Part shown: positions 1 through 4,443 of the stretch, one piece after another
Numbering within the stretch: the first letter of the stretch is position 1
Layout: the number at the start of each line of letters is the position of its first letter
Sequence record: SRR20825019_1298
DNA: 64,000 nt
Strand: one strand, 5' to 3'
Program-made: the position numbers and the translations under genes
The notes under the pieces: generated by a model
What the model was told of the DNA's origin: nothing
The model's input: only the letters and a program-made list of their open reading frames with translations
Databases searched by the model: none

Positions 1-1710
1 GCCCGTAGCCACCTCATAGATAAAGTCATCATACGAGGTGTAAAAGCCGTTCAGTACAAAGCTAAATGGACCTGTCGCATAGTTGAAGGTGGCCTCTAAC
101 CCCAAGGCCGTTTCCAGGCCCAGAGTTGCATCGCCAAGCTCGTAGGCGCCCGTGGCAAGGTGGGGACCATTTGAAAACAGCTCTTCAGTTGAAGGCGCAC
201 GCTCAGTCCTGAACAGTGACAGCCCGACAAAAGCAGCGTCAGAGATATCATATCCAGCGCCCGCCGACAGGCTGATGCCATCAAAGGATCGCCCATCCTG
301 CTCTGATGTTACATCCTCGATAGTATATTTGGTGTGTTCATACCGTGCACCCGCCTCAAACTGCCACGCGCCCGCTGAGAAGTCTTTCACGCTATACAGG
401 CCGTATTGTGTACTCACTGTCGGAGGAACAAACGCTTCTTCGCCAATCGCAGAAAAATCACGACGTTTGATTTGAATGCCTGTTGCCCCGTTCCAGCGTT
501 CACCACCTTTCTCAATCAAATCCAAACGGCCTTCCCAACCTTCGTTGGAAAACACGGTACCAATTTCATCGCCTTCAAGCTCTGTGTGTTTATAATCGGC
601 ATATCCAAATCGAATTTTCGCCTTCTTGAACCAGCCGAAGTCACCATTGAACTCTCCATGCAGGTCATAGCGGATCTGGTCAAGGTCGATGGTCACGGCC
701 TCGTCGTCATGCTCGTCCTCGTGATCGTCGTGGTCTTCATCTTCGTCATGTTCTTCATCATGATGGTGTTCATGGCCACCGGGCACGCCGTAGGTGCTAT
801 CCATCTTGCGAACATTGAAACCAAAAAAACCATTGTCGAAAATGAAGCTCAATCCCGCAGAGCCGCCCTTGCTCTCTGTTGCAGAATTTTCGGCAATACC
901 GAAGACTTCCTCATCCTCGTGTTCTTCATGATCGTCATGGTCATCGTGTTCTTCATCTTCCTCGTGCTCATCGTGCTCTTCTTCCTCTAAAGCCCGAAAA
1001 GCCTCGGATTCTGCGAACCCAGGTATTTTGTAATCGTCGGTTTTGCGGTACATCGCATCACCGTGGAAAACGATATTTGCATCTCCAACACTGCCAATAT
1101 TCGCTGTAATGGCGCCCGTCACCTCATTGCCGTGGTTTACCGTGCTGTGCCCATAACGCACACCGCCATCTACACCGCCTTCCGGTACTGCAGTAGCGAT
1201 CCGGCCGTCAAACACGTTTACCACCCCGCCAGCGGCAGAGCTGCCATACATCAGCATGGCTGTGCCGCGAAGTATTTCGATCCGTTCCGCAAGCGCAGGT
1301 TCAACCGCTACAGCGTGGTCCGGGCTAGTTGACGAGGCATCTATTGATCCAATGCCTGCATCAAGCACCCGAATTCGGTCTCCACCCAGCCCCCTGATAA
1401 TTGGACGGCTGGCGCCGGGACCAAAAAAAGTTGACGACATACCGGGTTGGCGACGTAAAGTTTCGCCAATCGAACCGTCGAGCTGGCGAAGGATTTCCTC
1501 TTTGCGCATGACCGTCGCACCCAGGATCGTTTCTCCGAGCTTTCGCCCCTCAAACGCACCTGAAACTACGATCTCTTCAAGCTGTTCATCAAGTGGTGGC
1601 GCCAAAGCCAGCGTCCCTGTTGTCGGGACAGTGGCGAATGTCACCGCAACTGTTGCAAGCAGGCGTTTCTTGTTGTTGCGATATATTGATTTGATTATTT
1701 TACTGGACAT
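1..1710 (-). CDS. TonB-dependent receptor, ZnuD-like (zinc/metal uptake); 3' end runs off the window
   Basis: Manual translation from ATG at 1710 is open to base 1. Signal peptide, TonB box-like LEEIVVSG, plug motifs GPGASRPIIRG and RIEILRG..LMYGSSA.GGVVN, two His/Asp/Glu-rich inserts, later ERAPSTEELFSNGPHLATG typical of ZnuD-like receptors. SD-like CAGGA upstream. Confidence 0.92.
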   Translation of the reverse strand, partial: MSSKIIKSIYRNNKKRLLATVAVTFATVPTTGTLALAPPLDEQLEEIVVSGAFEGRKLGETILGATVMRKEEILRQLDGSIGETLRRQPGMSSTFFGPGASRPIIRGLGGDRIRVLDAGIGSIDASSTSPDHAVAVEPALAERIEILRGTAMLMYGSSAAGGVVNVFDGRIATAVPEGGVDGGVRYGHSTVNHGNEVTGAITANIGSVGDANIVFHGDAMYRKTDDYKIPGFAESEAFRALEEEEHDEHEEDEEHDDHDDHEEHEDEEVFGIAENSATESKGGSAGLSFIFDNGFFGFNVRKMDSTYGVPGGHEHHHDEEHDEDEDHDDHEDEHDDEAVTIDLDQIRYDLHGEFNGDFGWFKKAKIRFGYADYKHTELEGDEIGTVFSNEGWEGRLDLIEKGGERWNGATGIQIKRRDFSAIGEEAFVPPTVSTQYGLYSVKDFSAGAWQFEAGARYEHTKYTIEDVTSEQDGRSFDGISLSAGAGYDISDAAFVGLSLFRTERAPSTEELFSNGPHLATGAYELGDATLGLETALGLEATFNYATGPFSFVLNGFYTSYDDFIYEVATG

Positions 1711-1738
1711 GGTTGTTTCCTGTAACCCTGATTTACGG

Positions 1739-1770
1739 TGTTGACAGTGAGTCCTCTCACTGGGCCAACA
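1739..1770 (-). other. Intergenic stem-loop between RAPP leader and receptor
   Basis: Minus strand UGUUGG-CC-CAGUGAG-AGGA-CUCACUG-UCAACA: 13 bp with a 2-nt bulge and no U-tract. Confidence 0.7.
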
Positions 1771-1788
1771 AAACTGAATTTTCGGTAT

Positions 1789-2124
1789 TTAAAGGGGGGT
1801 TACAAAGGATGGCGGCGCGCGGATCGCACCAATGCTGTCAAGAAATATGCGGCTTAGGCTACGAAGCGCTATTACCCATGTCACCTGCTCATTTTCTGGC
1901 AGGATCAGGTTTGTGCTTTGGGGCTTAAGCGTTGGGGTTTGATCAGAAAATTTGCACAATGCACAAACACGGTCATAAGGCGCGTCGACCTCATGATCTG
2001 AAACGTGTGCGCTCGCTGCAGCTGTTACCACAAAATATGCAATAACCGCGAATAGCCGAATGCCGATTTGAAAGAATGAGCCCTGTCTCACTACCTGTCT
2101 CTTAACTCTGATTATAACGGCCAT
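1789..2124 (-). CDS. DUF2946-like leader / putative RAPP ribosome-arrest peptide (alternative GTG start at 2091)
   Basis: N-terminal hydrophobic segment, HxxxH, CALC (CxxC), RAPP near the C-terminus, directly upstream of a TonB-dependent receptor. Confidence 0.8.
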   Translation of the reverse strand: MAVIIRVKRQVVRQGSFFQIGIRLFAVIAYFVVTAAASAHVSDHEVDAPYDRVCALCKFSDQTPTLKPQSTNLILPENEQVTWVIALRSLSRIFLDSIGAIRAPPSFVTPL

Positions 2125-2206
2125 AAGTCAATTCAGGACTTACAGCAGCTCCGGCGCAGCAAATAGCCGCGCCAATCCCCAACTTAAATATTGTGGGGTA
2201 AAGTAA

Positions 2207-2530
2207 TCAGAGAGAGGGCGGGCCACGCGCGCTCGCGCACGCCTTGAATGATGGGCAAGGAACGGAAGCCGTATCGGCCACATAGAAAATATGCCAATCC
2301 GGTGCCGCGAGTTGAGCAACAGGTTTCGCTGCATCAACGTCCGGTGTGTGCTTGCAAGCCGTTGCAATGATGCAAGGGTGACCATCGTGGGTATGTTCGC
2401 TATCAGCAAAGGCCGCCGCATGCGCGCTTGCAATGAGCTGTGCCGCAACAAAAAGCATAGCCAGCCATGGGGCAACCCTCGTCAGACCCAAACGGCCAAT
2501 ACTGTTTTCTATGTTGCGCGGCGATTTCAT
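2207..2530 (-). CDS. DUF2946-like leader / putative RGPP ribosome-arrest peptide
   Basis: Signal or TM segment, EHTHDGHPCIIATAC His/Cys cluster, C-terminal ARGPPSL-stop. Confidence 0.8.
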   Translation of the reverse strand: MKSPRNIENSIGRLGLTRVAPWLAMLFVAAQLIASAHAAAFADSEHTHDGHPCIIATACKHTPDVDAAKPVAQLAAPDWHIFYVADTASVPCPSFKACASARGPPSL

Positions 2531-2571: not shown

Positions 2572-2600
2572 AATTTACGCTATAATATTACGCGTTTCAA
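2572..2600 (-). promoter_or_regulatory. sigma70 promoter with Zur-like operator in the spacer
   Basis: Minus strand TTGAAA-N17-TAAATT. The spacer contains GTAATATTATAGC (2579-2591), 2 mismatches from the Zur core GTTATAnTATAAC. Confidence 0.7.

Positions 2601-2628: not shown

Positions 2629-4443
<1,815 letters not shown>

Follow-up and report, generated by a model that had tools for sequence, protein, structure and literature searches.

In SecM-secA and ApdA/ApdP, a C-terminal RAGP or RAPP sequence arrests the ribosome and the stall exposes a downstream Shine-Dalgarno (SD) sequence; these are single upstream open reading frames (uORFs) that monitor protein export and are not linked to metals. 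The DUF2946 proteins are arrest-peptide uORFs of the CruR and CutF kind. CutF, found upstream of cutO in Rhodobacter capsulatus (DUF2946; PMC9973294, preprint 10.1101/2025.02.05.636593), is a small exported sensor that carries a Cys/His motif and a Pro-rich stall site at its C-terminus, and in the proposed mechanism the stalled ribosome melts an RNA structure shielding the SD of the next cistron; this system consists of one uORF with a PPP motif, a simple stem-loop, copper-induced stalling and a copper oxidase as target. CruR from the CruR-bfrG system of Bordetella pertussis (DUF2946; PMC9426467) is a single copper-sensing uORF with CXXC and RAPP near its C-terminus, spaced by ~45 residues. 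It is the first gene of a TonB-dependent transporter operon with a long structured spacer and acts through Rho-dependent termination, and SD masking is not proposed for it. According to the main text of PMC12992588, RAPP and RGPP are the strongest, context-tolerant arrest motifs, the CruR stall was mapped by toeprint to a ribosome holding the two Pro codons in its P and A sites, and RAPP/RGPP uORFs are catalogued upstream of TonB-related genes across Gram-negative bacteria, a class to which the present uORFs belong; the link from arrest to the downstream genes is left open there. The DUF2946 family, the arrest motif, the link to TonB receptors and the principle of SD masking are already in print. 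Here we analyzed a 64,000-nt stretch of DNA, SRR20825019_1298 (the window), in which two such uORFs lie in tandem before the gene of a probable ZnuD-like receptor, and we describe the structure, conservation and geometry of the spacer between them together with the family features of the uORFs. We propose, with a probability of about 0.6, that this spacer is an RNA switch between two tandem arrest-peptide sensors, in which a stall on one unmasks the SD of the next, in series.

The uORFs, the spacer and the receptor are all encoded on the minus strand, and the first junction is composed of the following features.

2207..2530, minus strand: uORF1, 107 aa, ending in ARGPPSL and the stop; RGPP codons at 2227-2216, two codons before the stop at 2209-2207
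2204..2216, minus strand: closing helix, 5' strand (C UCU CUC UGA UUA), from the fold and motif positions
2177..2197, minus strand: inner hairpin 1 (CCCCA...UGGGG), from the fold and motif positions
2152..2174, minus strand: inner hairpin 2 (GGCGCGGC-UAUUU-GCUGCGCC, 9 bp), from the fold and motif positions
2116..2150, minus strand: inner hairpin 3 (10-bp stem and 3 outer pairs, with ATG 2124-2122 in the 3' arm), from the fold
2099..2114, minus strand: closing helix, 3' strand (UAAUCAGAG, a UUA bulge, AGAG), from the fold, overlapping the SD-like UAAGAGAC element conserved ahead of uORF2
1789..2091, minus strand: uORF2, 100 aa from GTG 2091 (111 aa from ATG 2124), ending in IRAPPSFVTPL and the stop; RAPP codons at 1821-1810, six codons before the stop at 1791-1789

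Compared with the described systems, uORF2 matches CruR in carrying CXXC and, a few residues from its end, RAPP, in the spacing of the two motifs and in its position ahead of a TonB-dependent transporter gene with a long structured spacer. Unlike CruR-bfrG, the locus has an extra upstream paralogue, uORF1, which carries HxHxGxPC and is unrecognised by Pfam. The differences from CutF-cutO are two uORFs in series instead of one, a helix that closes a multibranch of two to three hairpins across ~100 nt, R[AG]PP as the motif and a ZnuD-like uptake receptor as the target. Whereas copper induces stalling in CutF-cutO, relief of stalling by metal would suit the uptake receptor here. Tandem uORFs are unmentioned in the main text of PMC9426467, PMC9973294 and PMC12992588, the supplements of which may list pairs. 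Supplements aside, three features were not found in the DUF2946 and arrest-peptide literature, namely uORFs in direct tandem with a proposed switch between them, a multibranch closing helix of long range replacing the simple stem-loop, and the HxHxGxPC paralogue.

A multibranch RNA between the two leaders had been suggested by a sequence-only reading of the window, and the motif positions that it gave proved exact throughout. CUCUGAUUA is present at 2212-2204 and its partner UAAUCAGAG at 2114-2106, CCCCA and UGGGG at 2198-2194 and 2181-2177, GGCGCGGC and GCUGCGCC at 2173-2166 and 2160-2153, and UAAGUC and GACUUA at 2142-2137 and 2129-2124, with the uORF1 stop at 2209-2207 and the ATG at 2124-2122. 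Folding of 2227-2089(-) with ViennaRNA returned the same architecture as both the minimum free energy (MFE) structure and the centroid, with hairpins at 2197-2177, 2174-2152 and 2150-2116 inside the closing helix. The predicted extension of this helix into AGAG past a bulge was recovered too, and 2216-2204 pairs with 2114-2106 plus 2102-2099. The 5' strand begins on the final base of the second Pro codon, runs through the Ser and Leu codons and the stop, and ends 3 nt past it. The MFE of -53.7 kcal/mol compares with a mean of -37.26 +/- 3.84 over 200 dinucleotide shuffles (z -4.28, 0/200 as stable), and the antisense strand is nearly as stable (-50.1, z -4.88). Because both strands fold well and energy cannot choose between them, the strand was assigned by coding context. 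A scan of 1600-2700 against Rfam 15 found no family, the sole match up to E 10 being a chance microRNA (E 2.1). A separate promoter for the second leader had been named as a finding that would speak against the switch; consensus scans of the spacer found no sigma-70-like promoter and no terminator-like site. A repeat or mobile element was also considered and rejected, the 139-nt element being single-copy in the 4.18-Mb genome.

Related loci were collected by a search of genome contigs, which gave 11 loci, all from Kordiimonas or close metagenome-assembled genomes, plus one weak Planctomycetota match, and by a search of metagenome contigs, which gave 7 loci and added the tandem loci L041 and L042. 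Eight Kordiimonas-type tandem loci were compared (the window, L007, and L041, L008, L009, L010, L011, L042 and L013); L014, near-identical to L013, was not counted. Spacer length is 78-115 nt, most of the spacers cannot be aligned, and the intergenic sequences are unrelated between loci. Folds were computed for each locus over the interval between the Arg codon and uORF2 start+6. All eight MFE structures contain a closing helix that connects the uORF1 tail with the segment immediately 5' of the uORF2 start and encloses two to three hairpins. The z-scores of the eight folds are -3.71, -4.39, -3.60, +0.70, -4.79, -2.32, -1.53 and -6.39, and 0/200 shuffles were as stable in five of the loci. In an RNAalifold consensus of the window, L041 and L008, the closing helix and hairpins 2 and 3 are kept and 5 of the 38 pairs are compensatory. 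Hairpin 2 shows compatible and compensatory changes; hairpin 1 is absent from the consensus, though each locus folds a hairpin of its own at that place.

The specificity of the pairing was evaluated by permuting tails and ribosome-binding sites (RBSs) among the eight loci. With a narrow tail, from the second Pro codon to stop+9, cognate tail/RBS duplexes have a mean of -16.36 kcal/mol, which 12 of 40320 permutations reach, versus -12.02 kcal/mol for cross-locus duplexes; a six-locus version of the test gave 2/720. A wide tail that starts at the Arg codon and extends to stop+6 gives means of -19.05 and -15.11 and a count of 113/40320. The R-G/A-P-P codons are GC-rich and pair with GC-rich hairpins of the spacer as well, which is why the narrower tail was added and both are reported. 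In longer context, the share of SD pairing that goes to the tail ranges from 0.34 to 0.84 in the seven loci other than L009. On these comparisons the pairing is conserved through sequence change, with L009 weak and the loci related to one another.

The position of the helix is conserved relative to both coding regions. With offsets counted from base 1 of the first Pro codon, the 5' strand occupies +6 to +18 in the window and falls within -2 to +24 in 7/8 loci. The 3' strand is found at -23 to -8 from GTG 2091 in the window, and between -27 and +4 from the uORF2 start in 7/8 loci. It includes the SD of the downstream cistron, with partial coverage in L011 and L042. The footprint of a stalled ribosome reaches about +15. 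A ribosome stalled with the first Pro codon in the P site would cover ~10 of the 13 nt of the 5' strand in the window.

For this locus we infer a stall, its dependence on metal and the gating of the downstream cistrons in the following way. The closing helix of the fold pairs the final codons and stop of uORF1, right after RGPP, with the SD region of uORF2 ~100 nt downstream. A ribosome arrested on uORF1, its P site on the first Pro codon, would occupy or unwind ~10 of the 13 nt of the 5' strand, the helix would collapse and a second ribosome could start on uORF2. The RAPP tail of uORF2 would then repeat the same step on the SD of the receptor, so that receptor synthesis would require a stall on both nascent sensors at once, presumably under scarcity of their metals. 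The CruR logic, in which metal relieves the stall and expression falls, would fit because the target is an uptake receptor. A CutF-type SD-unmasking switch used twice in series appears to be the best-supported reading of the locus.

A number of observations weigh against this reading. CruR, the best-studied relative linked to a receptor, acts via Rho and not via SD masking (PMC9426467). As a thermodynamic proxy for the stall, nt -12 to +15 around the first Pro codon were blocked and the equilibrium accessibility of the SD was recomputed. The accessibility rose only modestly, from 0.46 to 0.58 in the window, 0.39 to 0.58 in L041, 0.18 to 0.53 in L008, 0.44 to 0.53 in L009, 0.29 to 0.39 in L010, 0.17 to 0.40 in L042 and 0.32 to 0.50 in L013, with L011 at 0.18 before and after; several start codons stayed paired, that of the window going from 0.06 to 0.08. 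The 3' strand in L011 and L042 covers only the 5' edge of the purine-rich SD. A positional scan found the SD window to be the single best partner of the tail in only 2/6 loci (L008 and L010), and in the window a GC-rich spacer segment scores -21.4 versus -19.1 for the SD window. L009 folds no better than its shuffles (z +0.70), and in longer context the tail accounts for only 6% of the pairing probability of its SD. Cross-locus duplexes are fairly strong, because C/U-rich Pro-codon tails pair with purine-rich SDs generally, and the permutation counts overstate independence, because the loci are related and represent perhaps 4-5 lineages. Finally, the uORF2 starts were assigned by our own reading of the alignments.

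The first alternative is plain translational coupling, in which any ribosome that arrives at the uORF1 stop opens the helix and activates uORF2 or re-initiates on it, with no need of an R[AG]PP stall; in the re-initiation variant, the helix serves to bring the uORF1 stop and the uORF2 SD side by side. Helix-mediated coupling is an established principle, the stop codon lies inside the closing helix in the window and most homologues, and the present evidence does not separate stalling from ordinary termination. Coupling does not, however, call for a motif that is invariant and nearly fixed at 2-4 codons from the stop throughout the uORF1 family, a distance which places the helix exactly within the footprint of a stalled ribosome, and mutation of the motif abolishes regulation in CruR and CutF. 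We consider coupling without a stall unlikely.

In the second alternative, the locus in reality works like CruR, by Rho-dependent attenuation: a Rho utilization (rut) site is shielded, or Rho is blocked, by the stalled ribosome, the structured spacer acts as an RNA-polymerase pause or an insulator, and the pairing of tail and SD is of secondary importance. This is the way in which CruR, with its long structured spacer, controls a TonB-dependent transporter, and cruR has a C>G region (PMC9426467), of which the following tract in uORF2 may be a counterpart.

1910..1950, minus strand: C-rich, G-poor tract within uORF2 (~32% C, 12% G), by composition only; candidate rut-like Rho-loading region

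C-rich, G-poor tracts are found in uORF1 (~2370-2340) and especially in uORF2 (~1950-1910; C 32%, G 12%), as judged by composition only. Attenuation does not account for the tail pairing specifically with the RBS of the following cistron at both junctions and in unrelated loci, and as the sole output it seems improbable. Since an untranslated uORF2 would expose the C-rich tract, Rho attenuation could act together with SD unmasking. The remaining alternative, that the fold is an mRNA stabilising or processing element or a chance product of a GC-rich spacer with no role in uORF2 initiation, draws on the similar stability of the antisense strand, on L009 not rising above its shuffles and on the effect on mRNA stability of removing the cutF stem-loop region in R. 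capsulatus, but is very improbable given a closing helix kept with different sequences in 8/8 loci and specific to the cognate RBS, in an element that is single-copy and has no terminator-like site within.

Pairing of an SD region with the preceding uORF tail is not confined to the first junction. The sequence-only reading held that the inter-uORF switch shares its design with a downstream one, and a tail-to-SD helix is indeed present again between uORF2 and the receptor.

1718..1809, minus strand: second junction, uORF2 tail with the receptor SD segment, enclosing a hairpin, from the fold
1..1710, minus strand: ZnuD-like TonB-dependent receptor, running off the window; full length 735 aa

The uORF2 tail (UCCU 1809-1806 and GUAACCC 1803-1797) pairs with GGGUUACAGGA (1728-1718), which carries the receptor SD. 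The fold of this junction has an MFE of -27.5 and a z of -1.26 and is not significant on energy alone. Over a total of 16 loci, tandem and single-uORF, the cognate tail/RBS mean is -14.32 versus -11.12 for cross pairs, a value reached in 2 of 20000 permutations, and a UU/AA difference in the receptor leader has a matching change in the tail. The same genome encodes a second DUF2946-like uORF (G000:C1:2592734-2593045 (-), locus L038, 22.8 bits), which ends in GSRAPPAALQTA and the stop. It lies 51 nt upstream of another TonB-dependent receptor, and its tail CCUCCAAACAG pairs with CUGUUUUGGAGG over the receptor SD.

An exploratory test was extended to the class. Of 251 alphaproteobacterial genomes, 63 contained matches to the DUF2946 model, 96 places in total, of which 40 were taken (L048-L087); two very long frames, one partial frame, one at a contig edge and G299 were skipped among the top 45. 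Eight loci without a candidate open reading frame (ORF), five with a spurious ORF lacking R[AGS]PP and one without a downstream ORF were lost, which left 26. Another 13 were dropped, bringing the total to 27/40, because their heuristic start assignments, >135 nt away downstream, looked unreliable; this filter was set after the list was seen. In 10 of the 13 alphaproteobacterial DUF2946 loci analyzed, at least 5 tail-to-RBS pairs are formed in the MFE structure around inner hairpins. The cognate mean of the 13 loci, with heuristic starts, is -15.60 versus -11.34, and 0/20000 permutations reach it. No two DUF2946 matches in the class-wide sample are <500 nt apart, the closest being 583, 646 and 1177 nt; the Pfam model misses the uORF1 type, so divergent tandems may escape it.

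The codons after RAPP may, as these pairings suggest, double as an anti-SD even across ~100 nt through a multibranch fold. A tentative extension, which we hold to be possible rather than probable, is that the locus is a serial relay of two distinct metal sensors, HxHxGxPC followed by CXXC, with each tail serving as the anti-SD of the next cistron. This would constitute a logic gate closed by either of two metals, or sharper for one, placed atop a Zur-like operator. In its wider form, the extension takes post-RAPP codons as the anti-SD of the next gene to be a general rule for RAPP uORFs before TonB receptors.

Both leaders are, by their sequence features, ~100-aa sensor uORFs of the known DUF2946/CruR/CutF arrest-peptide kind. 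A protein search found uORF1 homologues in 14 of 60 relatives and uORF2 homologues in 4. All aligned homologues, 13/13 of uORF1 and 6/6 of uORF2, end in R[AG]PP plus 2-7 residues, with R-x-P-P invariant; the window has RGPP+2 in uORF1 and RAPP+6 in uORF2. A hydrophobic N-terminal segment, H-x-H-x-G-x-P-C and R-x-P-P are shared by the 13 uORF1 sequences, and the residues H46, H48, G50, P52, C53, R102, P104 and P105 are invariant and nothing else is. CXXC is absent from uORF1, where H-x-H-x-G-x-P-C stands 48 residues from the R. Because this motif replaces CXXC, uORF1 can be viewed as a His/Cys variant, and such variants have been reported among CutF-like clusters. uORF2 possesses a hydrophobic N-terminus, H-x3-H and CALC as its CXXC. 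Two His, one Cys and I-R-x-P-P are invariant among the six uORF2 homologues, and CXXC is present in 5/6. The gap from CXXC to R is 44 residues in uORF2, and 45 +/- 1-2 residues separate CXXC from RAPP in the DUF2946 family (PMC9426467). By eye, A-x-A-like sites are visible after the hydrophobic stretch in both alignments.

Profile searches placed the two uORFs differently. uORF2 matches Pfam DUF2946 (PF11162) with 16.3 bits and E 0.017, below the gathering cut-off of 23.7, and 5/6 of its homologues match at E<=1, with a best E of 1.4e-4. The Pfam DUF2946 model matches 0/13 members of the uORF1 family. Alignment of uORF1 to the uORF2 family profile by hhalign gave 90.7% probability and E 1.2e-6; on this comparison uORF1 is a paralogue of uORF2, tied to DUF2946 solely via hhalign. 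A total of only 31 uORF1 clusters were found among 5.8 billion proteins, all of them unnamed or hypothetical.

The start of uORF2 had been placed at either ATG 2124 or GTG 2091, with both possible starts thought to be masked by the structure. The masking stands in that the 3' strand covers the ribosome-binding region of uORF2. ATG 2124 is judged the less likely start because it is not conserved, being ATA in L041 and having no in-frame ATG counterpart in L008, and because it is buried in the stem of hairpin 3. GTG 2091 is conserved and aligns with TTG in L008 and L041, each after the conserved UAAGAGAC element, and is most likely the start of uORF2. From the alignments, uORF2 starts with GTG or TTG and never with ATG in 8/8 loci (L007, L041, L008, L009, L010, L011, L042 and L013). 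The start codon in L009 and L010 is located within a conserved local hairpin (GUGAUCAAGGUCAC).

The receptor is the final gene of the unit, and small same-strand uORFs (<150 aa) directly before a ZnuD-like receptor are a layout common to 16 related loci. It matches the ZnuD model NF038289 with E 2.3e-104 and 350 bits, under the curated cut-off of 950. Long His/Asp/Glu-rich insertions, such as EEEEHDEHEEDEEHDDHDDHEEHEDEE and HEHHHDEEHDEDEDHDDHEDEHDDE, are present at residues ~240-345 and occur in the homologues too; they are compatible with a metal-scavenging ZnuD-like receptor. The two uORFs head an operon in Kordiimonas that is probably of the zinc type (ZnuD-like).

The unit is preceded by a promoter-like site.

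2572..2600, minus strand: promoter-like site (TTGAAA, 17-nt spacer, TAAATT), from a promoter scan

A palindrome at 2591-2579 (-), between the -35 and -10 of this site, resembles a Zur box. Upstream of uORF1, 17 of the 17 loci compared (the window plus L008-L021 and L041-L046) keep a CTTGA -35 element and, after it, a G[CT]TAT-N3-ATA[GA]C-like palindrome, the window having GTAATATTATAGC, L021 GTTATAGTATAAT and most others GCTATAGTATAGC. Because the palindrome has the form of the Caulobacter Zur boxes, GTTAT-N3-ATAAC (PMC4176598 Table 1), it suggests Zur-type transcriptional control atop the uORFs, with zinc as the relevant metal. Directly upstream lies a hybrid histidine kinase with HisKA, HATPase_c and receiver domains (window 2629-4443 (-)). 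The same gene is found before uORF1 in the tandem loci L008-L011 and L042, and not in the single-uORF loci shown.

DUF2946 and RAPP/RGPP arrest-peptide uORFs are numerous upstream of metal transporters, and the route from the stall to the downstream gene is settled in only two cases, which differ: Rho for CruR and SD unmasking for CutF. With two serial sensors and two cognate tail-to-SD helices, the present locus is a compact natural test bed for that route. If the switch proposed here is true, loci of the receptor type would also use SD unmasking, and arrest peptides could be linked in series to give control by multiple inputs. A general rule by which the tail is the anti-SD, if true, would cover uORFs whose output is now attributed to Rho or left open.

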